Source: a virus. From it: 64,000 nucleotides of DNA. The DNA lies in IMG/VR virus record IMGVR_UViG_3300022188_000006, positions 32,001 to 96,000 of that record; one strand, given 5' to 3'. Under the pieces are notes generated by a model that worked only from the letters and a program-made list of their open reading frames with translations, was not told the DNA's origin and searched no databases. This document shows positions 3,739 to 17,572 of this stretch, piece after piece (positions within the stretch are counted from its first letter, which is position 1; each line of letters starts with the position of its first letter). Position numbers and translations under genes: made by a program.

Positions 3739-3960
3739 TCAGCTCTTCTTCACCACGGTATTGTCCGTGGTGTTGTAGGCGTAGTTGCTGCTCCCATCGT
3801 CGGCGATGAGGTCGTTCGGAATCTCGCCCGTCTGGCCTTGGCCAAGGGCCTGTCCTTCAGGCAAGTCAGCGCTGACCTGATCGGGCTCCGCGAAGAAGCC
3901 TGCGCCCTTCACGTCACTCGTGCTCGTGTCGTAGATCGGATACCAAAGTGCATCGGACAT
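3739..3960 (-). CDS. 73-aa repeated acidic protein, copy 1 (putative fibre-tip chaperone/adaptor)
   Basis: Near-identical to 9953-10174, 11798-12019 and 13137-13358; AAGGAG SD upstream. Confidence 0.85.
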   Translation of the reverse strand: MSDALWYPIYDTSTSDVKGAGFFAEPDQVSADLPEGQALGQGQTGEIPNDLIADDGSSNYAYNTTDNTVVKKS

Positions 3961-4035
3961 CGCTAGGACTCCTTAAATTGCTACATTAACAAGGTTCAGA
4001 ACGAACAAGTATATACAATGTAAACAACCGTTGCC

Positions 4036-4797
4036 TTAGATGGCCATACTATATCCTTGAACACGGAGATTTGCTGAGTTGTATGTCGAATTATAGGTTG
4101 TTTGGTATTGAACCGTTGTATCACCGACTGATATTAAAAGACTTCCTAAGGCTCCGCTTCCAGTTTTCTGATCAACATCTTGATGATTGTTGTACGCTAT
4201 CATCCTAGAGGTATTAGGGCTAGAAGACTGTTGAAGAAAGAACCCCCCAGATACAGAACCGGTGCCTCCAGCAGAATCTGTATAGATAATAGCATGAAAT
4301 TCAGCCGCATAAGCTATAGGAGGAACATAGTTTGAAATAGTTACAGAAGTCCAGGAAGTAGTTGCTACACCATGCAGCAGTATAACGGCTGAAAATTGTG
4401 CTTTGTCACCAGATTGTCTAAAGTATCTAAAATTACTGCTCCCGTCGTTCCGCGCTGCTCCCACCAGCCTTTTCTTCGTATAACCAGAAGGCAGGACGGG
4501 ATTAGTCGGAGAAGCAGACAGAAGCCCGGCAGCAGTTTCTGTCGCCGGATTCCAGATCAGATAGATGTAGTACCAAGTGTTCGCGGCCTCGCTACCTGTA
4601 TCCAACCCATTTGCCCCGCTGTTCGTGATGTCAATGGTGACGTCGGAACTCAACGAAATCACGGCACCCCCGTCATCGGTACCGACCGTGCTTCCTGACT
4701 TGACGACAACCTGCGTCGCGGAGCTGCACTCAATGTGCAGGTTCTTCAGCAGACTCTTTATGATCCAGGCATCAACCTGACTAGGAGACAGTCTCAT
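4036..4797 (-). CDS. Constant-N/variable-C putative receptor-binding protein
   Basis: Shared ~125-aa N-terminal domain (NLHIECSS..VVIK.GS.VG.DDG..DITNSGANGLDTGSEAANTWYYIYLIWN..LPSGYTKKRLVGAARN) then a unique AT-richer C-terminal domain ending GYSMAI. Confidence 0.8.
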   Translation of the reverse strand: MRLSPSQVDAWIIKSLLKNLHIECSSATQVVVKSGSTVGTDDGGAVISLSSDVTIDITNSGANGLDTGSEAANTWYYIYLIWNPATETAAGLLSASPTNPVLPSGYTKKRLVGAARNDGSSNFRYFRQSGDKAQFSAVILLHGVATTSWTSVTISNYVPPIAYAAEFHAIIYTDSAGGTGSVSGGFFLQQSSSPNTSRMIAYNNHQDVDQKTGSGALGSLLISVGDTTVQYQTTYNSTYNSANLRVQGYSMAI

Positions 4798-4816
4798 TTT
4801 GTTCCCCTTCGCTATC

Positions 4817-5572
4817 CTACAAATCCAGGATAAAACCTACGCAACTTATCAGCGAATTCCAGGTAGCTTGATTACCTGCAAACACAGAAAAAACACCGGA
4901 TTCGTCGGTCATCTGCTCATAATTAACCGATGTGTACTGAACCGCGGAAGAAAAGACATCTGCGTATTGGCGATACAATCCGTTGGAGCCGGCACCTGAC
5001 TTCGCAGAATACGCTGTTCTCATTGTTATGTCGGCACCAGACGTAGGTGCACCTGCATATTGGTACAACCTCAAGGCACGGCCGATCTTAACGGGGTAAA
5101 AAGAAGCTGTGGTAACCTGAGTCCAGGAAGTAGGAATAGAACCGTTGACGAGAGCTATGGGCGTCTCGAACTCTACCAAGCCTCCTATCTGCTTGAAGAA
5201 CAAAAAATCCCCGCCAGAGCTGTTCCGGACAGCACCTACAAGGCGTTTCTGCGTATATCCTGAGGGCATAGTTGGAGCACTGTCAGACAAGGAGAACAAT
5301 CCCGCAACCGTGCCGGTACTAGGATTCTTGATCAGCCAAATATAATACAAAGTCGCAGACGCTTCGCTGCCGGTATCCAGCCCGTTGGCCCCACTATTGG
5401 TTATTGAGATGATGATATCTGAGGCTAGAGAAATCACGGAAGAACCGTCGTCGCTGCCGACCGTACTTCCGGCTTTGATAGTTACCTGCGACACACTGCT
5501 GGTTTCTAGCCGAAGGTTGTGTACCAACCTTTTTGTCAGTGCAACTGCGATTTCATTTGGATACTGAATCAT
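4817..5572 (-). CDS. Constant-N/variable-C putative receptor-binding protein
   Basis: Same N-terminal domain; unique C-terminus ending GFILDL. Confidence 0.8.
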   Translation of the reverse strand: MIQYPNEIAVALTKRLVHNLRLETSSVSQVTIKAGSTVGSDDGSSVISLASDIIISITNSGANGLDTGSEASATLYYIWLIKNPSTGTVAGLFSLSDSAPTMPSGYTQKRLVGAVRNSSGGDFLFFKQIGGLVEFETPIALVNGSIPTSWTQVTTASFYPVKIGRALRLYQYAGAPTSGADITMRTAYSAKSGAGSNGLYRQYADVFSSAVQYTSVNYEQMTDESGVFSVFAGNQATWNSLISCVGFILDL

Positions 5573-5583
5573 CTTCGCCTTCC

Positions 5584-5958
5584 TTACAAGTCATTCCTGG
5601 CGTTCTTCCTAGTCGCAATGCGATCCTGCAGTGCCTGGGGCAGATCGCTCATGGCAATCACTCCCTTGGCGACAAGAACGTCAACCAGATCCTCGATCCC
5701 GCGGACCATAGGGATGTCAGTGCTGGTAAGAGTATCCAGTGCCAGGCGCCGGTCATTCTCCGCGGTGTCCAAAACCCACGCACCGGTAGCCTCGTTCCAG
5801 TCACATGGGACGTTGTGCTCCAAGGACTCCTGCGGAGGCGCAACCTCCGTGAAGTTGGAATCGGAAAAATCGTCTTCGACCTGGACACCCCAATCACCGA
5901 CCCTGTAGTAAACGTTATCTTCGGGGCGCCGTGTCTCTTTGTTCCAGACTGTTTTCAT
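5584..5958 (-). CDS. Tail-fibre assembly chaperone-like protein
   Basis: WNEATGAWVLD..EN.RR pattern followed by helical C-terminus, typical of tail fibre assembly proteins; follows a tip gene. Confidence 0.5.
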   Translation of the reverse strand: MKTVWNKETRRPEDNVYYRVGDWGVQVEDDFSDSNFTEVAPPQESLEHNVPCDWNEATGAWVLDTAENDRRLALDTLTSTDIPMVRGIEDLVDVLVAKGVIAMSDLPQALQDRIATRKNARNDL

Positions 5959-5982
5959 GACTGACCTCGCTCAGCTCTGCAG

Positions 5983-6732
5983 TTACAGTTTCATCCAGAT
6001 AATGTAGTTGTAAAGCCAGCAAGAAACCGACGACGTGATGTAAAAGGAAAACTGCCGATTTGCATTCAACATCGTCTCTCCTGGCAAGACAGGATCGGTG
6101 GCTTGCTCGTTGTGGCTTAAGGTAACATAGGAATCTCCGGCCCCCACGGATCCGCTTTTTACGTCCGCAACAGCATGGATGTTGACATCCTGACTAGACG
6201 GAGCGCTAGCACCGCTAAAGACTCCGATAGCGTATGCCTTATGAGGAACAACAGGAGATAAGCTATACCAGGTATTTGCGCTTGGAGTACCCGTATAGAT
6301 AGCAAATCCGTTACCGCTATACAGGACTATCTTGTTGCCTTGCTGAACGAAAGCCATGAAATTTCCACTTGAATTGTTGCGGACTGCACTCACAAGACGC
6401 TTTTTGGTGTACCCGGAAGGCATAGCCGGTGACGTGGATGAAGCAGAGAGCAGCCCATCAATTTGACCGTTGCTCTCGTTCCATATCAAGTAAACGTAGT
6501 ACCAAGTGCTGACGGCTTCGGAACCAGTGTCGAGTCCATTCACACCGCTAGTGGTAATGTCGACCGTGACATCTGATGAAAGCTCCATTACAACCGCGCC
6601 GTCGTCCGAACCAACAACCGCGCCCTGTCGAATTGTGACCTGCGTGGCGCTGTCACAGGACACGCGCAGGTCTCGCAGAACCGAGCGTGTCAGCCACGGA
6701 TTATTTTGTGCTGGGGTCAACTGCGTCATCAC
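5983..6732 (-). CDS. Constant-N/variable-C putative receptor-binding protein
   Basis: Same N-terminal domain (GVNGLDTGSEAVSTWYYVYLIWN...MPSGYTKKRLVSAVRN); unique C-terminus. Confidence 0.8.
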   Translation of the reverse strand: MMTQLTPAQNNPWLTRSVLRDLRVSCDSATQVTIRQGAVVGSDDGAVVMELSSDVTVDITTSGVNGLDTGSEAVSTWYYVYLIWNESNGQIDGLLSASSTSPAMPSGYTKKRLVSAVRNNSSGNFMAFVQQGNKIVLYSGNGFAIYTGTPSANTWYSLSPVVPHKAYAIGVFSGASAPSSQDVNIHAVADVKSGSVGAGDSYVTLSHNEQATDPVLPGETMLNANRQFSFYITSSVSCWLYNYIIWMKL

Positions 6733-6765
6733 TCTTCCTCATATCAGTCACACAAGACGGCCAAG

Positions 6766-8415
6766 TCAGGTCGTCCCTACGAAGAACCTATTCCAGTCTG
6801 TCAGCACGTCTGTCAAGCCACTGTTAGGATTCGCCTGGAAGATGTTCTGTTCTATAATCACAGGATTGTGCATGTACCCATCCAAATAATTGCTGGCAAG
6901 GCCATTAGTGCCGATATAGAGCTTACCTGTGTAATTCGCCCCGAGGCTCGCAGACATTTGCTGAAAAGCAACTTGCGTACCGTTCAGATAAAGGCCAATC
7001 GTATCGGTGCTCACCTTGTACACATACGCCACATGGTACCACGTGCCGGCGACCATGGACCCGCCAGCTATGTTTATTTTAGTTGTACCGCCAACAACAT
7101 TCCAGAAGGCAAGTTGGTCGCTGCTGTCTTTGTAGAACGTCCATCTGTTGCTGCTGTCCTGTACCTGGCTTATGAATATCTTGCCGGTGCCGATGCTGTT
7201 ACTGGTAAGGTTGACCCAGCAAAACATCGTCCGGTCTTTGCCGCGGCCTAGCATATCCCAATACGGCTGATCCAACACAGCGTTGGCGTACTCGCTGTTT
7301 GACGCATTGAAAGCGAGCGACTTTACGTTGAACTTCACGGTCCCAGCGTAGGTCGTCATCTTCTGTCCAACCACGTGGACAGATTTAGAAAGGTCATAGA
7401 TGTGACCGTAGTTGGCCCCGGGATCCCACAGGCGATAGTCGTCGCCGGAAAGCAACATCCGTAGACCCTGCAGTCTGACAAGTCCGCCCGTTTTGTTTAC
7501 GATGTCCCAGGTACCGCGTGCAGCATCGTAACGCAGACAGACCTGCGACGGCTCAGCAAGCTCGACCCCATAGCCCGGGCCAGAGAGCCACACGCGCGCA
7601 CCGGGATCGGACAACGCAACGGTGATCACCTGCGCCGATTCGTTCTGAACCCAGATCGTCAGACCGTCGTCGGCGGAAGTCGCAGCGGGCAGGGTCAAAG
7701 TCCTGCCAGCGGATGTAGCCCTCGTGTATCTGAACAGGTAACCGTCTTCATAGACAGTGGCAGAGTAATCCGCGGTCAAATCTTTCTGGTACGACCATCC
7801 CTGATAGTCGTTAGTCCCCCCGGTGTCCTTCACCACGTAGAAATCCAGAATGTCGCCGGACTGCGCACCAGAGTTTAGAGTGATTGTACGAGCGTCCGTC
7901 TTTGTATACTCGTTTTCGTCCAAAAGCTGGCCGTTCTTGAAAACGAGTATACCCCGGTTGGTGTCGTAGCTGAGCGTGGCCAGGTTAAAAACCGTCTGGC
8001 TTGCGGTTGCTACCTGTCGTTCAGGAGAAAGAAGCGCACTGGCAATTCCCGAACTGGTATTCACCTCGGTAACAATTTTCCACCCGACAGTGCTATCCAC
8101 ATAGACGAGGATGAACCCACTACCATCCAGGTCGATCACCATGTCCTGGGCCTGGCATTCGATATTCGAACCATTCCTAGCGACCGTAAGCGTGTAAGTC
8201 GTTGCGCGCCTGTTTGCGTCGACAACACCGACTGTGTCGCCTTCTGTCGGCGAGGAGGGAAGCGTGAGCGTAAGGTCAGCGGAAGAAACGAGCAGATATC
8301 CGTAGCCGCTAACAGCCTGAGTGTTCGTCGTAACCTTAACCCAGGCCAATCTGGACCTACCGTAGAGGTTGCTCAACAGGCTCACTGCATAACTCCCTGG
8401 AATTCGTGATTCCAA
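6766..8415 (-). CDS. Tail fibre/adhesin with T4 gp9/gp10-like domains and C-terminal LamG (ConA-like) lectin domain
   Basis: LTLTLPSSPTEGDTVGVVD..LTVARNGSNIE module; ERQVATASQTVFNL module; C-terminal TMFCWV...GTWYHVAYV...IGLYLNG...LYIG...YLDGYM LamG pattern. Confidence 0.8.
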   Translation of the reverse strand: MESRIPGSYAVSLLSNLYGRSRLAWVKVTTNTQAVSGYGYLLVSSADLTLTLPSSPTEGDTVGVVDANRRATTYTLTVARNGSNIECQAQDMVIDLDGSGFILVYVDSTVGWKIVTEVNTSSGIASALLSPERQVATASQTVFNLATLSYDTNRGILVFKNGQLLDENEYTKTDARTITLNSGAQSGDILDFYVVKDTGGTNDYQGWSYQKDLTADYSATVYEDGYLFRYTRATSAGRTLTLPAATSADDGLTIWVQNESAQVITVALSDPGARVWLSGPGYGVELAEPSQVCLRYDAARGTWDIVNKTGGLVRLQGLRMLLSGDDYRLWDPGANYGHIYDLSKSVHVVGQKMTTYAGTVKFNVKSLAFNASNSEYANAVLDQPYWDMLGRGKDRTMFCWVNLTSNSIGTGKIFISQVQDSSNRWTFYKDSSDQLAFWNVVGGTTKINIAGGSMVAGTWYHVAYVYKVSTDTIGLYLNGTQVAFQQMSASLGANYTGKLYIGTNGLASNYLDGYMHNPVIIEQNIFQANPNSGLTDVLTDWNRFFVGTT

Positions 8416-9899
8416 TCAGACAAAGTATCGGTCTTTCCGCTATTTGGGTTCGCGCCATAGCAGTTGGCGTAGCTTATCAGCATGTCCTGCATGTACCCCT
8501 CATAGAAGTGAGCACCCGCGCCATTCTGCCCTATGAAGAGCTTTCCGGAGAAGTTCCAGGTGCTTGCGAGCAGCTGGTAAGCCACCTGCTGTCCGTTGAG
8601 ATACACACCGACGTTGCTACCGACTCGTGCGAAAGTTATGTGATACCAGCTGGAAGTTGACCCAATTGACCCGCCAGAAATTTGAAACTGATATGAACCG
8701 CCACCTTTCAGGTCAAGACAGACTGCATTGCTAGCATTCTTGTAGAATATCCAGTAGTTGTTGGAGTCCTGATAATGACAATAGAATACTTCTGTTGTAG
8801 ACAGTCTACTGGGCCGAATCCACAACGCCACTATTGCTATGCCACTCGTAGAGGCAAACACGTCCCAATCAGGGCTGTCCGAAATATCGACGTAAGCGCT
8901 ATTGCCAGCACCAGCCACATAGCTTCTCGGCGGTGCTATGTAGCTGCCACGGCTAATCTGCCACTGACTCTGCCCAACTGGCGCATGTCTCTCCGTGTCG
9001 TCTACACATTGTATCCAATTTACGCCTCCGCCCTTCCAAACGGTGACGTTATTTGAGCAGAGCAATCGCAGATCTTCCTGACGAACCAAGCCGCCACTCT
9101 TGTTGACCACGTCCCAAGTGGTTCTATTGTGATCATAACGAATACACACCAAAGCCGTCGGGAGAAGTTCAATCCCGCGACCACTTGGAGATGTCCACAC
9201 TCGACTCGAATCACCAGGAGTTACCGTAATCACGTGAGCCGACTCGTTCTGAACCCACACGACGTGACCGTCCTCGCCGCTGCCCACGGCCGGCAGCGTC
9301 AGGGTACGGTCGGCGCTCGTGCTCGACGTGTAGCGGTAGAGCTTGCCCAGATCGTTCGTCGTGAGCGCGGTGTCGGCGGTGACCTCGACCTCGGTCGCCC
9401 AGCCCTGGTATCCGCTGACATACTGGCCTGGGCCAGAGCCGGGGCCAGCAATCTCCGTCACCACGACCCACCCAACAGTCGCATTCACGTAGACCAGGGT
9501 AAAACCACTGCCGTCAGTGTCAATAACTAGGTCTGTAGCGGAACCTTCGATGTTGGAGCCGTTGCGCGCGACTGTCAGCGTGTAGGTCGTCGCTTTGCGG
9601 TCCGCATCCTTTACTCCCACCTTGTCCCCCACAGACGGACTCGCTGGCAGCGTCAAGGTGACATTGGAAGAAGCAACGATCAGGTATCCATTCCCTGTGA
9701 CAGCCGCGGTATTCGCGGTGATAACTTGCCACGACATGCCCCCGCCACCGCCACTGCCGGCAAGGGCCTGGTCTATGCCCTTGAGATGGGCGGATATCTT
9801 TGTAGTGCTCTCCGCCCCCGCCGGGGTCGGCGTATAGTTCGCCGGAGTAGCATAACCGGCTCTTATCTTCCTGCCTGTGAGGCGTCCTATCAGTCCCAC
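8382..9899 (-). CDS. Tail fibre/adhesin with T4 gp9/gp10-like domains and C-terminal LamG domain (paralogue of 6766-8415)
   Basis: Same gp10-like modules; VALWIRP...SWYHITFAR...VYLNGQ...LFIG...FYEGYMQD. Confidence 0.8.
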   Translation of the reverse strand: MGLIGRLTGRKIRAGYATPANYTPTPAGAESTTKISAHLKGIDQALAGSGGGGGMSWQVITANTAAVTGNGYLIVASSNVTLTLPASPSVGDKVGVKDADRKATTYTLTVARNGSNIEGSATDLVIDTDGSGFTLVYVNATVGWVVVTEIAGPGSGPGQYVSGYQGWATEVEVTADTALTTNDLGKLYRYTSSTSADRTLTLPAVGSGEDGHVVWVQNESAHVITVTPGDSSRVWTSPSGRGIELLPTALVCIRYDHNRTTWDVVNKSGGLVRQEDLRLLCSNNVTVWKGGGVNWIQCVDDTERHAPVGQSQWQISRGSYIAPPRSYVAGAGNSAYVDISDSPDWDVFASTSGIAIVALWIRPSRLSTTEVFYCHYQDSNNYWIFYKNASNAVCLDLKGGGSYQFQISGGSIGSTSSWYHITFARVGSNVGVYLNGQQVAYQLLASTWNFSGKLFIGQNGAGAHFYEGYMQDMLISYANCYGANPNSGKTDTLSDWNHEFQGVMQ

Positions 9900-9952
9900 G
9901 TGCTGAATCCCTCGCAGATTGGATACAGTACTTAGTAGTTACCGCCTACGCT

Positions 9953-10174: not shown

Positions 10175-10188
10175 GAGAGGACTCCTTT

Positions 10189-10968
10189 TTATAGGTCTAT
10201 GGTGTAACCAGAAACTCTAACATGGCAATTCCTAGCTGGAGTAAATGTGTCACTAGAGTGTAGATACACTTGTAATGTTTGGTTCACGATAGGGACTAGG
10301 ACAGAAAGATATTTAGTAGAATGCCTATCGGAACCATCTGTGGCGTAATAGGTACTAGTATCTACCGATCCTATGCGCGTCATCCTTGATGTATCTCGAT
10401 CAGGTGAAGCTGCAAAGACACCCCAACTGGCCTCACTTCCGTTTGATGGATATTGATAGGTGTCATAATATACCGAAGCTGTCATAACTGGCACTAATGA
10501 AGATAAGCTATATGTTCTCCAAGAATTAGTTTGCCAGGTTGTGCTGAAAACTGTCTCTGATGCAGTGACTAAATTGCCTCGCTGGAGAAAATGCTTGAAG
10601 TTGCTACTCCCATCATTCCTCACAGCTCCCACCAGACGCTTCTTGTCATAACCGGAGGGCAAAGTAGGATTGCTTGAAGACGCAGAGAGCAAACCAGCCA
10701 CCGTCTCAGTGGAAGGATTCCAGATCATATAGATGTAGTACCAGGTATCCGAGGCTTCAGAGCCTTGGTCCAGACCATTGACACCAGAATTCGTGATGTC
10801 CACAGTGATGTCCGCACCTGCTTCCATCACGATACTGCCATCATCCGCGCCAACTGCCGAGCCCTGCTTGATGACAACCTGAGTGCTGTTGCTGCACTCG
10901 ATGTGCAAGTTGCGGATGATGTTCTTCGCTATCCAGGCGTTAACCTGATCTGCTGCTAACTGAGTCAT
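10189..10968 (-). CDS. Constant-N/variable-C putative receptor-binding protein
   Basis: Same N-terminal domain; start moved to the ATG at 10968 (SD AGGAG 8 nt upstream; matches paralogue N-termini); ends GYTIDL. Confidence 0.8.
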   Translation of the reverse strand: MTQLAADQVNAWIAKNIIRNLHIECSNSTQVVIKQGSAVGADDGSIVMEAGADITVDITNSGVNGLDQGSEASDTWYYIYMIWNPSTETVAGLLSASSSNPTLPSGYDKKRLVGAVRNDGSSNFKHFLQRGNLVTASETVFSTTWQTNSWRTYSLSSLVPVMTASVYYDTYQYPSNGSEASWGVFAASPDRDTSRMTRIGSVDTSTYYATDGSDRHSTKYLSVLVPIVNQTLQVYLHSSDTFTPARNCHVRVSGYTIDL

Positions 10969-10995
10969 TGTGATTGCTCCTGTAACACAGGACAT

Positions 10996-11751
10996 TTAGA
11001 TGTCTAAGCTGAACCCGAGGACGAGCACGCCCAGAGTGATTGTATCTGAGTATTGCTTAGCAAATGTCAACACCCACGTGTTGGGTTCCACAACCAAATC
11101 TCTATGAATAGCTTGCGTTAACGCAAAAGTTGAATAGCGGTCCCCGTAGCTAAATCGTTGCCAAATTGAAGATAAATGCTTCACCCAAACTTGTTGATCG
11201 TAGTTTGAACCAGGAGTGAGATAAGACATCAACTGCAGTTCAGTTACAATCGGATAAGGGGCTGCTGACGCATAACTGATAGCAGTTCCACCATTAGAAA
11301 CCGTAGCCACGTCTGAAGTGAAAAGGGAAATCTCCGCACCGTATACTACTTTTTTCCCCAATTGGCGAAACTCGATAAAATTGCTACTGGAATTGTTTCT
11401 TACAGCGCCAATCAAACGCTTCTTGTCATAGCCAGAGGGCAGAGTAGGATTGGTCGAAGAGGCAGAGAAGAGTCCGGCTGCTGTGGAGGTCGTGCTGTTC
11501 CATATCAGCCAGATGTAGTACCACGTATTGGCCGCTTCACTCCCAGTATCCAGCCCGTTTGCACCGCTGTTCGTGATGTCTACAGTAATATCGGAACCAG
11601 CTGTAATGACGACAGAGCCGTCATCCGCGCCTACGGCGCTCCCCTGCTTAATAACCACCTGGGAAGCCGCGGAACACTCGACCCGCAGACTCTCTATGAC
11701 GCGCCGGACCAGGTACGCATTTACTTGGCTGGGCGGAATGGTCGTACCCAT
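10996..11751 (-). CDS. Constant-N/variable-C putative receptor-binding protein
   Basis: Same N-terminal domain; ends GFSLDI. Confidence 0.8.
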   Translation of the reverse strand: MGTTIPPSQVNAYLVRRVIESLRVECSAASQVVIKQGSAVGADDGSVVITAGSDITVDITNSGANGLDTGSEAANTWYYIWLIWNSTTSTAAGLFSASSTNPTLPSGYDKKRLIGAVRNNSSSNFIEFRQLGKKVVYGAEISLFTSDVATVSNGGTAISYASAAPYPIVTELQLMSYLTPGSNYDQQVWVKHLSSIWQRFSYGDRYSTFALTQAIHRDLVVEPNTWVLTFAKQYSDTITLGVLVLGFSLDI

Positions 11752-11797
11752 CTTTGCCTTCCTTCCTTTTGCATCGTGCGCAGCAGACTAACCTTTA

Positions 11798-12019
11798 TCA
11801 CGACTTCGGATTCACTGTGTTGGTGGACGTGTTGTAGGTGTAGTTGCTGCTTCCATCATCAGCGATGAGGTCGTTCGGAATCTCTCCCGCCTGACCCTGG
11901 CCAAGGGCCTGTCCGTCGGGTAGGTCAGCACTGACCTGATCAGGCTCAGCGAAAAAACCCGCGCCTTTCACGTCGTTCGTGGAGGTGTCATAGATTGGAT
12001 ACCAAAGTTCGTTGGACAT
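11798..12019 (-). CDS. 73-aa repeated acidic protein, copy 3
   Basis: Near-identical paralogue; AAGGAG SD. Confidence 0.85.
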   Translation of the reverse strand: MSNELWYPIYDTSTNDVKGAGFFAEPDQVSADLPDGQALGQGQAGEIPNDLIADDGSSNYTYNTSTNTVNPKS

Positions 12020-12056
12020 TGCTGAAACTCCTTGTTAAGACATCAGAGTCTGGTTC

Positions 12057-12815
12057 TCAAATGTCCAGAGTAAAACCACGAATATCAATGATCGCCGCCC
12101 CCTTGGACGACGGTGCATACGCTGTGTATGCCTTAATAGTTCTATTCCTCAGTATGGTCTTCGTGTCCGAAACATCGGCATGCGCTTTTGTTTGGTCATA
12201 GTCTTCTGTTGCCAGAGTCGCAAGGATGATAGTCCCGGTATCATCCAGTACACGAATGTTCTGATAATTGATCCCTTGATTAGCATATCTCCAGACCTGA
12301 AAGTGCACCACGCAACCAACAGCCTTCTCAGGTACAGATGCAGAAAGAGACAAGGTAGTCGGTGTAGTTGAGGCCCAACCACTCACGATGTTACCGAAAC
12401 CACCTTTGACCTCTTTTCCACGCTGAAAAAACTGCAGGAAATTCGAGGATGAATCGTTGCGCACTGCCCCCACCAGCCTCTTCTTCGTATAACCGGAAGG
12501 CAAGGTAGGAGCGGTAGAGGAAGCTGACAGAAGCCCTGCCACCGTCTCAGTGGAAGGGTTCCAGATCATATAGATGTAGTACCAGGTATTGGCAGCTTCA
12601 CTTCCGGTATCTAGGCCGTTAGCACCGGAATTCGTGATGTCCACGGTAATGTCCGCGCCCGCTTCCATCACCACTGAACCGTCATCAGCGCCTACACTGG
12701 AACCCGCCTTGATCACAACCTGACTGGCCGCCGAGCACTCGATATGTAGGTTGTGAATGAGTGTCTTTGTAAGCCAGGAATTGATGTGGTCTGCTGGAAT
12801 TTTTGTCTCGGCCAT
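12057..12815 (-). CDS. Constant-N/variable-C putative receptor-binding protein
   Basis: Same N-terminal domain; ends GFTLDI. Confidence 0.8.
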   Translation of the reverse strand: MAETKIPADHINSWLTKTLIHNLHIECSAASQVVIKAGSSVGADDGSVVMEAGADITVDITNSGANGLDTGSEAANTWYYIYMIWNPSTETVAGLLSASSTAPTLPSGYTKKRLVGAVRNDSSSNFLQFFQRGKEVKGGFGNIVSGWASTTPTTLSLSASVPEKAVGCVVHFQVWRYANQGINYQNIRVLDDTGTIILATLATEDYDQTKAHADVSDTKTILRNRTIKAYTAYAPSSKGAAIIDIRGFTLDI

Positions 12816-12854
12816 TTTTGATCCTCACCGGATATTATTGGTTTGGCTGATCAC

Positions 12855-12953
12855 TTATCCATTCCTCAGTGCGCAATCTCTCTCAGTACATAAGCCACGG
12901 GTAGCACTCTTCACTATCCAAGCATTAGCCTGATCGGATGCGAGACGTGCCAT
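12855..12953 (-). pseudogene. N-terminal stub of a variable-tip gene (MARLASDQANAWIVKS...)
   Basis: Same leader AGGAGCAATCACAATG as the gene starting at 10968, and a similar N-terminus (MTQLAADQVNAWIAKN), but stops after 32 codons. Confidence 0.75.
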
Positions 12954-12981
12954 TGTGATTGCTCCTAACTGTTCACGTCGG

Positions 12982-13125
12982 CTACAATGCGACTTGATAG
13001 CCTAAGATTTCCAGTGTGAACTGGACTGTTTCGTTATATGCCTTTCCAAAGGCCAAGCTGGTCTGCCCCGGCTTCACGATCAAATCCTGATGTACAACAG
13101 CAGAGTAGAACTCGTCGATGGTCAT
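12982..13125 (-). pseudogene. C-terminal remnant of a variable-tip gene (47 aa)
   Basis: AVVHQDLIVKPGQTSLAFGKAYNETVQFTLEILGYQVAL aligns with the end of 10996-11751 (QAIHRDLVVEPNTWVLTFAKQYSDTITLGVLVLGFSLDI); has its own AAGGAG SD and ATG. Confidence 0.75.
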
Positions 13126-13136
13126 GGAGCGCTCCT

Positions 13137-13358
13137 TCACGACTTTGGCTCAACGGTATTGGTGGACGTGTTGTAGGTGTAGTTGCTGCTTCCGTCATCA
13201 GCGATGAGGTCGTTCGGGATCTCGCCCGTCTGACCCTGGCCAAGGGCCTGTCCATCAGGCAAGTCAGCACTGACCTGATCAGGCTCCGCGAAGAAGCCTG
13301 CGCCCTTCACGTCGTTCGTGGAGGTGTCGTAAATCGGACACCAAAGTTCGTTGGACAT
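13137..13358 (-). CDS. 73-aa repeated acidic protein, copy 4
   Basis: Near-identical paralogue; AAGGAG SD. Confidence 0.85.
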   Translation of the reverse strand: MSNELWCPIYDTSTNDVKGAGFFAEPDQVSADLPDGQALGQGQTGEIPNDLIADDGSSNYTYNTSTNTVEPKS

Positions 13359-13385
13359 TGTTGGGACTCCTTCACTATAAAATTT

Positions 13386-14141
13386 TTATAAATCAAGCAT
13401 ATAACCATACGAATAGATTGTCGCACTGGGGTTATTGTAATTATCACTCACATAATATTGAATAGTCGTCGTTTTTCCAAAAATGAGGTTGCTAGTCATG
13501 TCATAATCAGCTTGAGCGTATGCATCAGCACTACGCCTATTTGAGTATGCTACAGCGTAACTTGGACTTGAAGAGTTTTTCCTTACTTGTATGCTAATTG
13601 TATTGTGCCCAGAGCCAGGTAAAGCCACATAACCACGTATATTTAAGCTCACAGAGAGATCCGTCGGAGCGATACTAGCAAGGTTTATTGTTGTCCAGGA
13701 CGTTAGCGCGCCAGAAGCAATAGTTATATCGCTGTGCGTCACGTAGTTGTTGTACTGCGTAAAGCGTATAAAGCTGCTACTGGAATTGTTCCTCACAGCT
13801 CCCACCAGCCTTTTCTTCGTATAACCGGAGGGCAAGACCGGAGCAGTGGCAGAAGCTGACAGCAAGCCAGCTACGGTACCATCCGAGCTATTCCAGATAA
13901 GGTAGATGTAATACCAGGTATTGGCAGTCTCAGAACCAGTGTCCAGGCCATTGGCACCACTATTCGTGATGTCCACCGTAATGTCTGAACTAAGTGACAT
14001 CACCACTGCTCCGTCATCGCTGCCGACAGCAGACCCGGCTTTGATGACCACCTGTGATGCGGACGAAGACTCAATATGCAGGTTGTGGATCAGCGTCTTC
14101 GTGATGAATGCGTCAACCTGGTAAGGTGCAAATCGCGACAT
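13386..14141 (-). CDS. Constant-N/variable-C putative receptor-binding protein
   Basis: Same N-terminal domain; strongly AT-rich C-terminal half; ends GYMLDL. Confidence 0.8.
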   Translation of the reverse strand: MSRFAPYQVDAFITKTLIHNLHIESSSASQVVIKAGSAVGSDDGAVVMSLSSDITVDITNSGANGLDTGSETANTWYYIYLIWNSSDGTVAGLLSASATAPVLPSGYTKKRLVGAVRNNSSSSFIRFTQYNNYVTHSDITIASGALTSWTTINLASIAPTDLSVSLNIRGYVALPGSGHNTISIQVRKNSSSPSYAVAYSNRRSADAYAQADYDMTSNLIFGKTTTIQYYVSDNYNNPSATIYSYGYMLDL

Positions 14142-14152
14142 GCGCCGCCCTC

Positions 14153-15106
14153 CTAGATCTTATGGAAGCAAACTTCCTCGCCGCCAACCATGGCATTGTT
14201 AAAAGTCACACTGGTGGTGCTCGTCTCCGTGTACTCGGAAAGGCTCGCCTTTTTGCCGTTGACGAACACCAGAAGCCGGTTGCTCCCGGGCGTGTAGGCA
14301 AACCCAGATATGTTGAACACAGTCTGTCCCACGCTCGCTGTCTGACACTCGACTGAAGCCGGACCCTGGTCAGTCGGAACAGGTTTAACAGTGTAAAACT
14401 CAAAGACATCGCCTGCCAAGGCTCCATTCGCCAAAGTCACAGTTGTGCTGTTTGTTTTGGTGTAGAGGCTGTTGTCGAGAATCTGCCCGTTACGCACCAC
14501 GAAGATTGCATAACGGGGGTTGTATGTGATTTCGTTGAGCGTGAAAACAGTTTGATTTGCGGTGGCCACCTGGCGTTCGCTCACCATTACGGCCTCACCG
14601 ATGCTATCGGTGCCGCAGATAAACTTCATCACCGAGACCTTTGTCCCGCTGGTACGGCCGGTATTGAACACGACATCATTGCCGGAAAACACGTAATCCG
14701 CGGTATACGTCATAAGCACTCCACCGCTCATGACAATTGTGTTCCCGCGATTCGGCGGAGCACAGTGTGAACAGGTAAAAGTAGTCTGATTGGCGGTTGC
14801 GACAAAGTCGTCGCGCTCCATGCAGGTCCCGGCACTGCTCGGCCCCGCACCAGACAGTCCCTGTATCACGGTGACTTTTTGTCCGGCCGCACAACCACTT
14901 GTGAATACCACGTCATTGCCGCTAAACGAGTAGTCAGCGGGACTGTACTGCAGCACCTTGCCGTAGAACACAAGCGTGTTACTCTCATTGGGACTGATGT
15001 TCGACAAGGTAAACGTCGTCTGATTGGCACTGGCTGTGAACTCCTCCTTCAGGAAGTAGCCCACGCCGGCAAAGCCACCGAAATACTCACTCAGATTAAG
15101 GCTCAT
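14153..15106 (-). CDS. Virion protein made of four ~65-aa beta-repeat modules
   Basis: Four copies of 'E.(F/Q).ATANQT.F.....L.V..NG.....Y......V.F.......G..V'. Confidence 0.8.
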   Translation of the reverse strand: MSLNLSEYFGGFAGVGYFLKEEFTASANQTTFTLSNISPNESNTLVFYGKVLQYSPADYSFSGNDVVFTSGCAAGQKVTVIQGLSGAGPSSAGTCMERDDFVATANQTTFTCSHCAPPNRGNTIVMSGGVLMTYTADYVFSGNDVVFNTGRTSGTKVSVMKFICGTDSIGEAVMVSERQVATANQTVFTLNEITYNPRYAIFVVRNGQILDNSLYTKTNSTTVTLANGALAGDVFEFYTVKPVPTDQGPASVECQTASVGQTVFNISGFAYTPGSNRLLVFVNGKKASLSEYTETSTTSVTFNNAMVGGEEVCFHKI

Positions 15107-15145
15107 CGCTTTGTTCCTTGTTCAGCCTGTCAGATTCGTCCCAGG

Positions 15146-16768
15146 TCAAATGCTTAACTTGTATCCCATGCAGTAGATATCCGCACGATCATAGCTGTCG
15201 CCGCACCTGAAATAAAAGACAGAGCCTCTGAGAGTAAGAGGCGGAACGCTTGCCTTGATACTCCAGTTTCCAGAGGTAACGGCGTCTCCCTGCTGAATAA
15301 CCGCATAAAAGTTTCCTGCAGAGTCGGCAGACAAATAGAGAGCAGTTCCCGTCGAGGTATTACCAGTCGGAATGCGACTCCAGCCCCACAAGTGAATCTG
15401 CGATGTAATCCAGACCGGCGCGGCAGGGCTTACAGCCACAGAGGTGTAAGACGTAGCGTTGACACTTGAAGCAAGAAGCTGTGTCTGAATCTGAACATCC
15501 CGATTTATCTGCCGGAACCAAACGAAATTACTACCTCCATTGTTGCGCACCGCACCAAGCAGCCGCTTAGCCGTGTAGCCGGCAGGCAACGTCGGCGATG
15601 TGTAAGAGGTAGACAGCAGACCTGCTGCATTGCTGCCATCCCAAATCAGGTAGATGTAGTACCAGGTATTCGCAGCCTCGGAACCTGTATCGAGACCATT
15701 TGCACCAGAAGTCGTGATATCGACCGTGATATCGGAACTCAGGTTAACGACTTGACTTCCGTCATCGAGGCCAACCTTTGACCCAGACTTTATGACCACT
15801 TGGTTGTTGTTATCACAACGTATCTCCAGGTCCTGAGTAAAACCAGCTATGATATTCGGGTCTCCGCCACCGGAAGCTGACCCCGTCACCGCCTGGAACT
15901 TGATGACCTCTATCTTCTCACTTGTACTCGTGATCGCGTTTGTGAGCGTAATACTGTTCGTACTGGTCTCAGTGTAATCCTGCGTGGCAATCTGAACATT
16001 TCCGTTGCGCCGCACCTCAATCTGGTGGATACCCTGAACATACGAGAAGGAGAGGTTCAGCACGGTGGTTCCAACGGCCATGTTCTGAAACAACTGGTAA
16101 TCAACGGCAACGTCCGAGACACCTTTCAGGGCGTAGACTTCGATGACCTCCCCAGAAGCTGCAGGCTCTGCAAGGGTCACAACGCTTGAACTGGTCTTCG
16201 TGTACTCGTCCTGATTGAGGACCTGGCCGTTCTTCGTCACGATAATCGCGTGACCAGTGTCATAGCTGATGCTGGCCAGAGTTACAACGGTCTGGCCGGC
16301 AGTCATCACTTGCTTTTCAGATACAAGCACGGACGGCGTGGTAGTACTCCCTCCTCCACCGCCGCCACCTTTGCTTAGGAACTCACGCGCATCCGTAATG
16401 TCAGCTGCATCAATGACGACCGAAGCGGATTCATCTATCTTGATAATAGCTATCGCCAGCTTGTCGGAGGGAAAAGCCGGAGCATTGGCAAAAGGACTTC
16501 CGGAGCCAGCCGTAACTTCGCTTCCCTGGGCAACCGCCAAATTGCCGCTGTCGTCGACAACCAACAGGTCATATCGCTCCTTGCCAGCACCAGAAACTGC
16601 CGCAAAAGCCGGACTGGTTGTAGGACTCGTGATTTCAACAAAGCCGGACCCGTCGCTCTTGACATGCTTTCCGGGCGAGACAATCACCGTCGCATTAGCC
16701 GTGGGCTGCGGCCTGACGAAATAATCCGCAACAAGAGCGAGGCGTAGTGGATGAACTCTGGAATCCAT
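15146..16768 (-). CDS. Tail fibre: anchor module + two beta-repeat modules + constant/variable tip domain
   Basis: N-terminal module shared with 17579-20674 (RYDL.V.D..G...GSEV...P..NAP...DKLAIAII...DITD.REFL); C-terminal half is a member of the tip family, ending GYKLSI. Confidence 0.8.
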   Translation of the reverse strand: MDSRVHPLRLALVADYFVRPQPTANATVIVSPGKHVKSDGSGFVEITSPTTSPAFAAVSGAGKERYDLLVVDDSGNLAVAQGSEVTAGSGSPFANAPAFPSDKLAIAIIKIDESASVVIDAADITDAREFLSKGGGGGGGSTTTPSVLVSEKQVMTAGQTVVTLASISYDTGHAIIVTKNGQVLNQDEYTKTSSSVVTLAEPAASGEVIEVYALKGVSDVAVDYQLFQNMAVGTTVLNLSFSYVQGIHQIEVRRNGNVQIATQDYTETSTNSITLTNAITSTSEKIEVIKFQAVTGSASGGGDPNIIAGFTQDLEIRCDNNNQVVIKSGSKVGLDDGSQVVNLSSDITVDITTSGANGLDTGSEAANTWYYIYLIWDGSNAAGLLSTSYTSPTLPAGYTAKRLLGAVRNNGGSNFVWFRQINRDVQIQTQLLASSVNATSYTSVAVSPAAPVWITSQIHLWGWSRIPTGNTSTGTALYLSADSAGNFYAVIQQGDAVTSGNWSIKASVPPLTLRGSVFYFRCGDSYDRADIYCMGYKLSI

Positions 16769-16789
16769 GTCGCGTTTTCCTTTTCGCGA

Positions 16790-17572
16790 TTACAGCATCA
16801 ACTGGAATCCAACGACTTCCAGGCTGAGAGTATCATTGTCGGCTGTATTGGCCTGGAAGTAAACGTTGCCGTCGATATTCGGCAACTCGACGTATCCAGC
16901 CAGTCTCTTCACGTGCGGACCAACGGCAGATCCGAGACCGCCGATCTCCGTCATTACGTCCACCGTACCTATGCCGTTCGCACTCGCCGAAAGTCGGACA
17001 CCTACATCGTCAGAAGAATCCGGCGCCACATCCTCAATCAAAACCTTCAGTGAGTAGTAACTTGTAACGGGCACTGGAAGTCCAGGATTGAGAGCGGCTG
17101 TAGCAGGAGCACCAGCGGGAGGAATCGACATATTTGCCAGAATGACCTGTGGCAGTGTGCTTACCCGCGCATTCATCTGTTCAAAGGCAACAAAGTTCGA
17201 GGAAGCATCATTATACACAGCCCCCACAAGACGAGCGTCCGTAAACGGCGGGGGGACCACCGGCGCGCTCGAATTGGCGCTGAGAAGTGCTGCTGCGCTC
17301 TGAGCCTGATAGTCGTAAATCAGGTAGATATAGTACCAAGTGCTTGCTGCCTCAGTGCCCTGGTCCAAGCCACCAGGTCCGGAAACCGTTGGGTCTGCAG
17401 TCAAGTCCGACGACAAGGTAACCACAGCGCGTCCCGTCGAGAGACCGATGCTGCTACCCGCGCGAATCGCCACAGAGGAAGGCCCCGTCATCGAAACGCG
17501 CAGGTTCTGAATGGTCGCGGCTACGAGGTTACCGCCGCTCAATGTCTGTCTTGGAAACAGAAGTGGCATCAC
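16790..17572 (-). CDS. Divergent member of the constant-N/variable-C tip family
   Basis: SGPGGLDQGTEAASTWYYIYLIY...RLVGAVYNDASSNFVAFEQ; ends GFQLML. Confidence 0.75.
   Translation of the reverse strand: MMPLLFPRQTLSGGNLVAATIQNLRVSMTGPSSVAIRAGSSIGLSTGRAVVTLSSDLTADPTVSGPGGLDQGTEAASTWYYIYLIYDYQAQSAAALLSANSSAPVVPPPFTDARLVGAVYNDASSNFVAFEQMNARVSTLPQVILANMSIPPAGAPATAALNPGLPVPVTSYYSLKVLIEDVAPDSSDDVGVRLSASANGIGTVDVMTEIGGLGSAVGPHVKRLAGYVELPNIDGNVYFQANTADNDTLSLEVVGFQLML

Follow-up and report, generated by a model that had tools for sequence, protein, structure and literature searches.

What is the function of a series of co-oriented phage genes whose products keep an almost constant N-terminal half and an unrelated-looking C-terminal half, and does such a series amount to a new kind of system? 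The question is raised by an uncultivated phage from a hydrothermal vent, known as a 156-kb record, of which we analysed a window of 64,000 nucleotides (positions 32,001 to 96,000 of IMGVR_UViG_3300022188_000006). The array lies entirely on the minus strand. When one tip was used as a query against the entire record, exactly nine places were returned (E 3e-168 to 4e-33), all stop-free, and an N-domain HMM retrieved the identical nine copies, each at the position that an earlier note on this DNA had given. Eight copies are stand-alone genes (249–268 aa) and one is fused to a longer fibre. We conclude that the array is an enlarged, compact version of a known multi-receptor tail-fibre design, and we reject a new kind of system. 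The features are as follows, by decreasing position.

17579..20674, minus strand: long fibre of 1031 aa (PDB 7rfv/7rej/7rfo, E 9e-8 to 6e-7)
16790..17572, minus strand: divergent stand-alone tip, 260 aa, likely starting at the ATG at 17569, without an adjoining small partner gene
15146..16768, minus strand: 540-aa fibre with a tip module fused C-terminally (N-domain at residues 304–422; the tip is the last ~235 aa)
14153..15106, minus strand: 317-aa protein built entirely from fibre-shaft repeats (four of ~75 aa), immediately upstream of tip 13386
13386..14141, minus strand: stand-alone tip, 251 aa (C-domain GC3 0.377)
13137..13358, minus strand: small partner gene copy 4, 73 aa
12982..13125, minus strand: relic of the final ~40 codons of a 10996-like tip, ending ...ILGYQVAL (BLASTP E 4e-8)
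12855..12953, minus strand: relic of the Shine-Dalgarno site and initial ~15–20 codons of a 10189-like tip (MARLASDQANAWIVK...; family D5, 80%), after which the reading register is lost
12057..12815, minus strand: stand-alone tip, 252 aa, modelled (pLDDT 88.9) and used for complex prediction
11798..12019, minus strand: small partner gene copy 3, 73 aa, predicted binder of tip 12057
10996..11751, minus strand: stand-alone tip, 251 aa, second of the two modelled copies (pLDDT 87.1); no other C-domain is as isolated
10189..10995, minus strand: stand-alone tip, 268-aa reading frame (C-domain GC3 0.323); the likelier start is the ATG at 10968 behind AGGAGC, giving 259 aa
9953..10174, minus strand: small partner gene copy 2, 73 aa
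8382..9899, minus strand: 505-aa fibre with a gp10-like domain (residues 46–152), another, weak one, and a concanavalin/LamG-like domain at the C-terminus
6766..8415, minus strand: 549-aa paralogue of the 505-aa fibre with gp10-like domains (residues 14–122 and 219–309), one shaft repeat and a LamG-like C-terminus
5983..6732, minus strand: stand-alone tip, 249 aa, atypical at its C-terminal end
5584..5958, minus strand: 124-aa gene in the partner-gene position behind tip 5983
4817..5572, minus strand: stand-alone tip, 251 aa, whose N-domain is the tree outlier
4036..4797, minus strand: stand-alone tip, 253 aa (C-domain GC3 0.288, the lowest of the window)
3739..3960, minus strand: small partner gene copy 1, 73 aa, marking the end of the array

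Mean pairwise identity among the nine copies is 63% (42–83%) in the N-domain (~125 aa) and 18% (12–25%) in the C-domain. The abrupt divergence described past F..F.Q is borne out by a sliding profile that drops from 0.62–0.75 to 0.13–0.17 in about 15 columns. Within the constant half the initial ~25 residues are the least conserved stretch (identity 0.25–0.36); stand-alone tips carry an extra N-terminal helix, absent from the fused copy, and these helices follow one pattern, P..Q(V/I)(N/D)AW(I/L).K..I.NL. The C-domain retains a single semi-conserved island at tip residues 141–160. Among the motifs proposed for it, the invariant proline (P159 in the first copy) and the terminal G(Y/F)x(L/I/M)x(L/I) strand hold, except that copy 5983 deviates at the latter.

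Structural modelling, which covered tip monomers and one complex of three tip copies with one partner, predicts two beta-sandwiches. The modelled N-domain is similar to domain 2 of Mtd from a Bordetella phage: residues 10–159 of the AlphaFold model of tip 12057 superpose on Mtd 48–207 with Z 11.2 (rmsd 3.0 A, 111 aa), and the Pfam family PF21916 (Mtd_2nd) matched all nine copies, three of them above its cut-off. The modelled C-domain resembles the trimeric Bdellovibrio fibre tip Bd2133, residues 133–249 of the same model matching 8ok3 with Z 11.6 (rmsd 2.7 A, 113 of 121 aa); among unrelated structures, the best match to this model reached Z 7.9. Tip 10996, a very different copy, gave Z 10.6 to Mtd and Z 8.7 to Bd2133, in a model biased towards the family fold by the alignment of distant relatives on which it draws. 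Strand order is identical in the two models, and the Bd2133 tip is the best solved C-domain match of both. Iterated profile searches with 192 distinct C-domains joined 8–9 of the 9 window C-domains (E 1e-6 to 1e-17), so the suggestion that the C-domains share one fold is supported.

Each tip starts at an ATG of its own, behind a Shine-Dalgarno site, as expected from the earlier description of co-oriented, complete genes with separate starts, and N-domain dN is 0.30 with saturated dS; the tip genes are thus supported as real, separately translated and under purifying selection. The tail-fibre PHROGs 11518 and 19294 also match the tips, the entire tip matches the C-terminal halves of annotated fibres of Pseudomonas phage PPpW-3 and Rhizobium phage Palo (TM 0.69–0.79), and a P2 gpI-type baseplate gene lies upstream of the array. 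Because of the fold, the homology to C-terminal ends of tail fibres and the position beside baseplate genes, the assignment of these genes as tail-fibre receptor-binding tips is supported.

We consider it likely that the locus encodes the part of the tail with which a large vent myovirus binds its receptors, with docked trimeric tips, multiple specificities, a partner protein and turnover by import. The tips probably form trimers and attach to the virion through their constant part (the N-terminal helix and N-domain), and each C-domain would probably bind a different host surface structure. Candidate docking sites lie in the flanking fibres. The 1031-aa fibre contains two copies (residues 313–423 and 443–558) of the module that forms the N-terminus of the 540-aa fibre, ~75-aa shaft repeats, its own distinct C-terminal domain and a single T4 gp10-like/CBA120 TSP4-N-like domain (residues 757–865), and at least five gp10-like domains are present across the 1031-, 505- and 549-aa fibres. 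By analogy to Klebsiella, CBA120 and G7C phages, these domains may act as sockets for the tips.

Such sockets could be used in more than one way. Tips might compete for a common socket via the constant domain, giving each virion a random mixture and the phage a form of bet-hedging, in contrast to a fixed hyperbranched complex with its own place for every tip. We regard competition as possible but doubtful. A single docking mode is plausible given the N-domain identity and the common helix pattern, all runs are served by one nearly identical partner protein, and relatives carry from 1 to 8 copies without any evident parallel change in the number of sockets. However, the poorly conserved first ~25 residues could be address labels, and the gp10-like domains together with shaft ends could provide several distinct sockets.

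Four genes of ~73 aa (3739, 9953, 11798 and 13137) and the 124-aa gene at 5584–5958 were not mentioned in the earlier note. The four ~70-aa partner genes close tip runs, in the window as in relatives; nine loci that contain stand-alone tips have a partner directly downstream of them, and no locus with fused tips only has one there. The window copies are 86–96% identical in amino acids, far above the N-domains of the tips, with dS 0.5–1.0 and dN/dS 0.04–0.20. The family is tiny: a set of 1.84 billion representatives yields about 27 credible clusters. For three copies of tip 12057 and one partner, complex prediction gave an ipSAE of 0.85, against 0.00 for the best control; of 80 solved complexes 58 attain the mark applied, as do 2 of 110 mismatched pairs. 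Runs agreed on at least 89% of contacts, and partner pLDDT did not fall below 86. The search for a solved counterpart of the complex found none and the N-domain profile had no match among PDB sequences, so the passing score is unlikely to reflect memorised structures. The partner is thus predicted to bind the tip, its residues 18–25 pairing with tip residues 141–160; it would extend the first C-domain hairpin by a strand, where the two domains meet.

The partner is probably a minimal chaperone or clamp of the tail-fibre-assembly type. It resembles the Tfa proteins of Mu, P2 and lambda (Caudo_TAP) in that its gene directly follows a fibre or tip gene and in its predicted placement on the distal module, but its sequence matched neither Caudo_TAP nor any other Pfam or PHROG family. 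Its closest structural neighbours include Caudo_TAP, Caudo_TAP_N and Phage_tail_APC clusters (TM ~0.6, a lead only), and the predicted fold of the 124-aa gene product is closest, weakly, to tail-fibre assembly proteins (TM 0.34–0.51). Tfa proteins, as in Mu, have a conserved C-terminal domain, which the partner lacks because it has only ~70 aa.

That difference is also what would be expected if the partner were a structural adaptor that stays on the tip, plugs into fibre or baseplate and is itself the true docking element. Its conservation, four copies suggesting a stoichiometric need and a predicted site on the side of the tip, away from the distal end, agree with such a role. We nevertheless judge it unlikely: tips 16790 and 5983 and the L007 array of a relative have no adjoining partner gene, the free surface of the partner has no known binder, and its nearest structural neighbours are assembly-protein families.

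How did so many tips arise? Among 80 IMG/VR loci examined, 60 have one copy fused to the end of a 304–1149-aa fibre; a few large phages have stand-alone runs of two to six tips, and closer relatives a single stand-alone tip. Between related phages the stand-alone tips range from 1 to 8, with members partly shared and partly not, as the earlier note had anticipated for array content. The term hypervariable, by contrast, misleads: orthologous C-domains are nearly as conserved as N-domains (92–99% against 90–98%), and the array is unchanged in vent populations of at least 99% identity from 2018 and 2025, which shows that hypermutation is not at work. We rejected targeted mutagenesis or inversion as the source of diversity, given this stability, a genome search that found no reverse transcriptase, and the absence from the array of inversion signals beyond four short, imperfect inverted repeats (18–24 nt). 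The sole serine recombinase of the record lies ~20 kb from the array.

Tip diversity arises instead from old birth-and-death turnover and imported C-domains. Three C-domains have GC3 values of 0.288, 0.323 and 0.377, whereas the genome averages 0.617, the lowest of its 194 windows has 0.425, and N-domain GC3 is 0.54–0.61. This compositional foreignness supports import, to which other causes of low GC3 could partly contribute. The gap at 12816–13136 keeps a collinear relic of the 10996/10189 junction and is a deletion scar. Both findings back the proposal of exchange at the domain boundary. The two gene relics within this gap had not been mentioned in the earlier note. DNA identity among constant domains is only 60–72%, and the N-domain of the fused copy and those of six stand-alone copies fall in different tree clades. 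The family is probably an old one, shaped by gene gain and loss together with import of foreign C-domains at the boundary.

A different use of recombination, in which the stand-alone tips remain unassembled and serve mainly as a cassette reservoir for the fused fibre at 15146–16768, like pilin or polymorphic-toxin cassettes, is very unlikely in our judgement. The fused copy does head the array, here and in L006, L007 and L083, and the constant domain supplies homology for recombination; contigs of a 90–95% relative also carry joints of one N-domain with another (4491 to 13840) and of one partner gene with another (10069 to 11968), weak evidence given short junction flanks of 44 and 66 letters. 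Against this, the tips have a full N-terminus, Shine-Dalgarno site, ATG and the extra helix absent from the fused copy, and every copy is intact and under purifying selection. At the identity given above, constant domains are ill suited to frequent homologous recombination, no rearrangement distinguishes near-identical populations sampled seven years apart, and the fused N-domain belongs to another clade than six stand-alone copies. That the tips are tail or capsid decoration, defence or superinfection-exclusion factors with a fibre-tip fold is highly improbable, even though TNF/C1q-like and carbohydrate-binding modules resemble the tip beta-sandwich (Z 6–7.6), since in most of the 80 loci long fibres end C-terminally in the two-domain module, as do annotated tail fibres of cultured phages, and the array lies inside a fibre cluster adjoining baseplate genes.

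Receptor-binding tips of this kind have several precedents. The lactococcal phage proteins p2 ORF18 and TP901-1 BppL are stand-alone trimers of ~170–260 aa with a shoulder/neck/head design; their conserved N-terminal domain anchors them in the baseplate, and an exchangeable C-terminal head determines host range. Lactococcal entries 1zru and 2x53 were among our structural matches, the N-domain likeness being weak (Z 5.8–6.0), but those proteins are encoded in single copy per genome by siphoviruses of Gram-positive hosts. The invertible Mu G and P1 C segments and shufflons likewise gather alternative fibre C-termini, each with an assembly gene, at a single locus, whereas all genes here are co-oriented and complete. 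Mtd of Bordetella phage BPP-1 (PDB 1yu0–1yu4) is a separately encoded receptor-binding protein that forms a stand-alone trimer at fibre ends (PMC2408619), and its second domain matches our N-domain. In Mtd, however, a diversity-generating retroelement rewrites the variable part, a C-type-lectin domain, whereas here the C-domain is a different beta-sandwich and variety comes from many gene copies instead of mutagenesis of one. The Bd2133 tip (PDB 8ok3/8ond), a trimer, belongs to the MAT fibres of Bdellovibrio bacteriovorus, which share the C-domain fold, similar stalks with exchanged tips and many copies per genome (PMC10769870). Those are complete fibres of ~1000 aa scattered in the genome of a predatory bacterium, whereas here 250-aa separate phage tip genes stand in tandem with a small partner gene.

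A parallel in organization is offered by branched multi-RBP phages of the G7C, CBA120, Klebsiella KP32, Menlow and PhiK64-1 groups, with up to 11 RBPs in PhiK64-1 and T4 gp10-like domains as sockets (PMC6872550), and by hyperbranched phiKp24 (PMC9700779). Their secondary RBPs also combine conserved N-terminal docking elements with variable distal parts, and three fibres flanking the present array carry gp10-like domains, to which docking would follow by analogy. Their RBPs are depolymerase tailspikes of 500–1200 aa with short docking peptides, in contrast to the uniform 250-aa lectin-like tips, 125-aa constant domain and dedicated ~70-aa partner found here. With constant-N/variable-C RBPs and branched multi-RBP complexes already described (PMC6872550), calling the array an undescribed system was too strong; receptor-binding tips, real genes, variation in content and boundary exchange survive from that interpretation, and hypervariability does not.

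If our working model is true, one phage would gain many specificities. The most original element of the array is the conserved small partner gene, which the earlier note had overlooked.

Translation of the window placed a common N-terminal domain of ~125 aa in eight stand-alone genes (249–268 aa; hereafter tips, named by their start coordinates) and in the C-terminal ~235 aa of a 540-aa fibre gene, and a six-frame search of the whole record returned exactly these nine places (E 3e-168 to 4e-33). The array of tip genes with constant N-terminal and divergent C-terminal domains that an earlier note had read from the sequence is thereby confirmed. All genes in the window lie on the minus strand.

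Features of the tip array and its surroundings (window positions)
4036, 4817, 5983, 10189, 10996, 12057, 13386 and 16790 (starts), minus, stand-alone tips
3739, 9953, 11798 and 13137, minus, partner genes
6766-8415, minus, 549-aa fibre
8382-9899, minus, 505-aa fibre
14153-15106, minus, 317-aa gene
15146-16768, minus, 540-aa fibre ending in the fused tip copy
17579-20674, minus, 1031-aa fibre
21639-23525, minus, P2 gpI-type baseplate gene, upstream of the tip array with other tail genes

Pairwise identity among the nine copies averages 63% over the N-domain and 18% over the C-domain (~120 aa), and the identity profile drops from ~0.7 to ~0.15 within ~15 columns after the F..F.Q motif, a fall as abrupt as had been noticed by eye. 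One proline early in the C-domain is invariant across copies, and the terminal strand G(Y/F)x(L/I/M)x(L/I), which the earlier note had ascribed to all copies, is kept in eight and missing from one. The tips have in common an N-terminal amphipathic helix pattern and the 125-aa constant domain, with an identity of only 0.25–0.36 over their first ~25 residues. Every tip has its own Shine–Dalgarno (SD) site and ATG; for tip 10189, the ATG at 10968 behind AGGAGC is the better start. The SD sites of the genes are of the bacterial type, and scans for promoters (16 found, 13.4 expected) and terminators (13 found, 13.0 expected) stayed at chance level.

The array is a tail-fibre receptor-binding array. 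Mtd is the protein with which Bordetella phage BPP-1 binds its receptor, and Pfam family PF21916 (Mtd_2nd), its second domain, matched all nine N-domains (E 1e-6 to 2e-4), three of them above the gathering score of 24.6 bits (29.0, 26.7, and 25.4) and six just under it (22.2–24.4), and several tip copies matched tail-fibre PHROGs. Among PDB sequences, a profile of the N-domain found nothing at E up to 1. Tip 12057 was modelled with AlphaFold from an alignment of 30 relatives, and the model (mean pLDDT 88.9) shows a short N-terminal helix (residues 8–18) followed by two beta-sandwiches. When aligned with VIA-align, residues 10–159 fell on Mtd residues 48–207 (Z 11.2, rmsd 3.0 Å, 111 aa, 20% identity) and residues 133–249 on the C-terminal tip of Bd2133, a fibre of Bdellovibrio (8ok3; Z 11.6, rmsd 2.7 Å, 113 of 121 residues), with all further matches at Z 7.9 or lower. 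Thus the N-domain resembles Mtd, a separately encoded trimer at phage fibre ends (PMC2408619), in sequence as well as fold, and the C-domain has the twisted beta-sandwich of the Bd2133 tip, a trimer about a central strand (PMC10769870) that likewise sits at the distal end of its fibre, over nearly the whole length of 8ok3. In BFVD, the two-domain tip resembled the C-terminal halves of annotated tail fibres of the cultured phages PPpW-3, Palo, and XAJ2 (TM 0.63–0.79) and also matched a stand-alone 249-aa protein of an uncultured phage.

That all C-domains have one homologous fold, as the earlier note had suggested, is well supported by iterated profiles and by two AlphaFold monomer models that both fit Bd2133 best. 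BLASTP between C-domains found no window pair at E below 1e-3 and only weak foreign matches. Iterated profiles over 192 distinct C-domains recruited eight to nine of the nine window copies (E 1e-6 to 1e-17); the slices used still included the last five residues of the predicted N-domain, which may have helped the profiles slightly. The second model, of tip 10996, which has the most isolated C-domain, reached a pLDDT of 87.1 with the same strand order as tip 12057; its N-domain again matched Mtd best (Z 10.6), and its C-domain again matched Bd2133 best, less clearly (Z 8.7, next match 7.6). Because this model leans on an alignment of distant relatives, a single fold is well supported but not proven for every copy.

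The record comprises 156,275 bases, of which the window is 32001-96000, with a completeness estimate of 89%. Logan contigs contain the window near-whole in five metagenome runs from hydrothermal vents; the runs belong to different studies, dated 2018 and 2025, and one is possibly the source sample. A near-identity DNA search with the array found no match among 50,697 GenBank phage records. The tail module also holds a 712-aa coiled-coil protein (27458-29596) with repeated NPV_P10, DUF7310, and DUF16-type coiled-coil matches, and relatives have a similar gene of 753–852 aa adjoining the baseplate gene. A glycosyltransferase group-1-like gene recurs in or beside the fibre clusters (26005-27114 in the window, L001:16836-18293, L003:4899-6356, and L083:3573-4613), with a weak match in the window (E 0.002) and clear ones in the relatives; it could be a modifier of fibres or of host surface sugars.

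Tips of this family are widespread, with 693 proteins at E 0.001 or better in a collection of 5.8 billion clusters and 453 confirmed places in IMG/VR. Of the 80 best loci there, 60 carry a single module fused to the C-terminus of a 304–1149-aa fibre, and a few large phages have stand-alone tips of ~250 aa in runs. The phages closer to that of the window (locus L083 and the contig of P0007) have one stand-alone tip behind a fused fibre.

Tip content of related IMG/VR loci
L001 (338-kb contig), 960-aa fibre, six tips and one gene of 71 aa
L003, five tips and one truncated tip
L006, 910-aa fused fibre and four tips
L007, 706-aa fused fibre and two tips
L005, two tips

Array content is not constant among these relatives, since L001, L003, and L006 have three orthologous tips in common and differ in the remainder of their arrays, and since tip counts elsewhere vary. 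Identical content across relatives, which the earlier note had held to count against its reading, is therefore not what we found. The orthologous tips are 92–99% identical in the C-domain and 90–98% in the N-domain between L003 and L006, and 69–78% and 72–89%, respectively, in comparison with L001. Two other sets of repeated genes were seen in these clusters. In L001, three tandem paralogues of 411–412 aa with faint or weak beta-helix matches (12592-16341) follow the six tips and the 71-aa partner gene and look like another array, one of putative receptor-binding or depolymerase proteins. Paralogues of ~300 aa from another family, ending in ...WTAEVA or ...LEVA, stand in triplets or quadruplets before each tip and partner pair in L005 (2988-5674 and 7286-9987) and after the pair in L083 (10997-14594); they would be another gene family repeated in the tail-fibre clusters of these phages.

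Each of the four 73-aa partner genes of the window follows the last tip of a run. Their proteins are 86–96% identical, and a dS of 0.5–1.0 with a dN/dS of 0.04–0.20 indicates that all four have been kept by selection; recent copying is ruled out by the dS. Homologues of 67–73 aa lie directly behind tips in L001, L003, L005 (twice), and L083 (twice), as does a longer ORF of 111 aa in L013; L006 has a homologue too, but elsewhere than directly behind a tip. In all, a partner directly follows a tip at nine loci that represent only about six independent lineages, and loci with only fused tips have no partner homologue. A profile search among 1.84 billion representatives found 30 clusters at E 0.001 or better, ~27 of them credible (two are spurious repeat proteins, the others stand-alone proteins of 66–125 aa), and a word-based search found four clusters only. 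Two of its hits, one of 2231 aa in which ten stretches matched and one of 402 aa, were considered as a multi-socket scaffold but proved to be unrelated repeat proteins, the former a bacterial DUF285/LRR_5 surface protein among housekeeping genes and the latter a low-complexity repeat. The partner family is new. It matched no Pfam family, no PHROG, and no tail PHROG, and 11 members searched against PF02413/PF28596 (Caudo_TAP) gave no match at E up to 10.

When one partner was modelled together with three copies of tip 12057, the predicted tip–partner ipSAE was 0.85, whereas the best control reached 0.00; of 80 solved complexes, 58 attain this mark, and of 110 mismatched pairs, 2 do, in a calibration set up differently from this prediction. 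Contact agreement between runs was at least 89% and partner pLDDT at least 86, and the predictor is unlikely to have reproduced a structure it was trained on because no similar complex has been solved. In the predicted interface, partner residues 18–25 (KGAGFFAE) pair with tip strands 141–147 and 153–160, and the partner also touches N-domain residues 75–76 and 121–122, which puts the predicted site where the two domains join and at the first C-domain hairpin. The site coincides with the sole semi-conserved island of the C-domain (identity 0.24–0.29 against 0.13–0.17 elsewhere), where the earlier note had rightly picked out a W.T..L....P motif, so that one nearly invariant partner could serve very different tips.

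We propose that the partner would act as a minimal chaperone or clamp of the Tfa type on the predicted tip junction. It resembles Tfa proteins in standing directly downstream of the tip and in its predicted binding to the distal module, and differs from them in having no Caudo_TAP sequence match. An Atlas model of the partner has structural neighbours in tail-assembly-chaperone and tail-fibre-assembly families (PF16778 or PF02413) at a TM of ~0.6 over ~60 residues. For the 124-aa gene behind tip 5983, 8 of 10 structural-neighbour rows are assembly-protein families, with a TM of only 0.34–0.51. A live rival to the chaperone reading is that the partner is a permanent adaptor.

The fibres beside the tips have features of branched systems made up of receptor-binding proteins (RBPs). 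Secondary RBPs of Klebsiella, G7C, and CBA120-type phages have conserved N-terminal elements through which they dock at T4 gp10-like domains as their sockets, and PhiK64-1 combines eleven RBPs with five gp10-like domains and four docking peptides (PMC6872550). Here, a domain of the 1031-aa fibre (residues 757–865) matches, over residues 761–860, the N-terminal structures of the CBA120 tailspike (7rfv, 7rej, and 7rfo; E 9e-8 to 6e-7). By our count, the 1031-aa fibre has one gp10-like domain, the 549-aa fibre has two, and the 505-aa fibre has a clear one and a marginal one (E 0.028); these fibres also have tail-spike PHROG matches. The 505- and 549-aa fibres each have a gp10-like N-terminus, a second, weaker copy, and a concanavalin/LamG-like C-terminus. 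Shaft repeats of ~75 aa are common to all fibres of the locus, and the 317-aa gene consists of nothing but such repeats. Because of the gp10-like domains and the shared shaft repeats, the locus has the parts list of a branched multi-RBP apparatus, in which the 250-aa tips may be small secondary units.

Two observations concern the fibres themselves. The fibres at 6766-8415 and 8382-9899 are paralogues, 41–65% identical by segment, in the middle of the tip array. A module of ~115 aa occurs twice in the 1031-aa fibre (residues 313–423 and 443–558) and once at the N-terminus of the 540-aa fibre (residues 1–140), its copies matching at E 1e-28 to 1e-30. The fibres are built from shuffled shared modules.

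The composition of the C-domains points to exchange. Their third-position GC content (GC3) is 0.288, 0.323, and 0.377 in three copies and 0.45–0.48 in three more; in the rest of the window, mean GC3 is 0.617 (sd 0.081), and each of 194 segments of 120 codons reaches at least 0.425. The N-domains of the genes with low-GC3 C-domains are normal (0.54–0.61), so the C-domains are compositionally foreign. Turnover is indicated by a scar in the gap at 12816-13136, where the last ~40 codons of a 10996-like tip are followed by the SD site and first ~15–20 codons of a 10189-like tip, in the order seen at the intact, collinear 10996/10189 junction. In an N-domain tree (FastTree, midpoint root), six window copies and single-tip genes from other phages form one clade, the fused copy and tip 16790 group with fused forms from elsewhere, and tip 4817 is an outlier. 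The window copies are not a single in-genome clade in this tree, with foreign single-tip genes nested among the six and with 4817, 15146, and 16790 placed elsewhere, and the tree fits birth-and-death evolution over a long time, not a recent burst.

Contigs of a 90–95% identical relative break near N/C boundaries, with joints between paralogous N-domains (4491>13840) and between partner genes (10069>11968). Further joints are 10187>4511 and 4797>4460; all four were seen in contigs only, with flanks of 34–66 letters. Loose ends near N/C boundaries lie at 4448 (255 unlike letters, metagenome run X6) and 11411 (100 letters, run X5), and parts of the array have no contig cover in either run. As contigs with short flanks, these joints and breaks are hints only; they and the uncovered parts are compatible with swapped or deleted C-domains in relatives, but paralogues or assembly could equally account for them. 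In runs of 2018 and 2025, the array is covered by contigs at least 99% identical to the window and is essentially unchanged in them (zero differences in one piece, 3931-9275), and near-identical populations show no clustered variation in C-domains. Because orthologous C-domains are conserved and these contigs are nearly unchanged, hypervariable, the term of the earlier note, is the wrong word for the C-domains.

Other origins of the diversity were rejected. Recent gene conversion of the constant domains is ruled out by a DNA identity of only 60–72% and saturated synonymous sites, and the tip paralogues are therefore old and not being homogenised. Unlike invertible fibre segments or shufflons, the array has all its genes on one strand, no adjacent invertase, and no meaningful inverted repeats (four only, imperfect, 18–24 nt). 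The sole serine recombinase or invertase candidate in the record is a 221-aa resolvase-family frame (G000:C1:15173-15550, minus; PF00239, E 5.6e-19) that lies ~17 kb before the window start and ~20 kb from the tips, and the array has no inverted sites to match it. A diversity-generating retroelement (DGR) is ruled out, since RVT_1, searched for reverse transcriptases, is unmatched in the 156-kb record (89% complete) and the C-domain is a Bd2133-type sandwich rather than a C-type lectin.

In its parts, the array is closest to Mtd and the Bd2133 tip, and it is not a DGR, shufflon, or hypermutation system. The earlier note had put it forward as an undescribed system; it is instead a variant, compact and expanded to an unusual degree, of the known principle by which modular RBPs are carried on branched fibres. 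New are the uniform 250-aa stand-alone tip format, the expansion to eight genes, the compositional evidence for imported C-domains, and the ~70-aa partner family with its confident predicted interface.

Phage host range is set by receptor-binding proteins, and the broad-range phages known so far have a number of large tailspikes, mounted on branched scaffolds. The locus would represent a far more compact route to multiple receptor-binding, in which a 125-aa constant domain, an exchangeable sandwich of ~120 aa, and a ~70-aa partner are repeated up to eight times and renewed by the import of foreign C-domains. A bolder view, which we think improbable, is a hitherto undescribed plug-and-play system of 250-aa tips in which a universal ~70-aa partner clamps the junction of any tip, all tips fit a common socket, and virions are mosaic. 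Under such a system, a changing, mixed set of tips (one to eight genes in relatives) would be mounted on the same fibres, new C-domains would arrive from unrelated phages with the docking interface untouched, and mosaic, bet-hedging virions would result. If the tips do share one socket, the locus would exemplify combinatorial or mosaic virions in nature and offer a small and well-defined scaffold on which to study specificity-module swapping. The partner family, being new, with ~27 credible clusters and a confident predicted interface, is directly testable by co-expression, and since the tip family is common in environmental phages, establishing its function would annotate many genes now called hypothetical.
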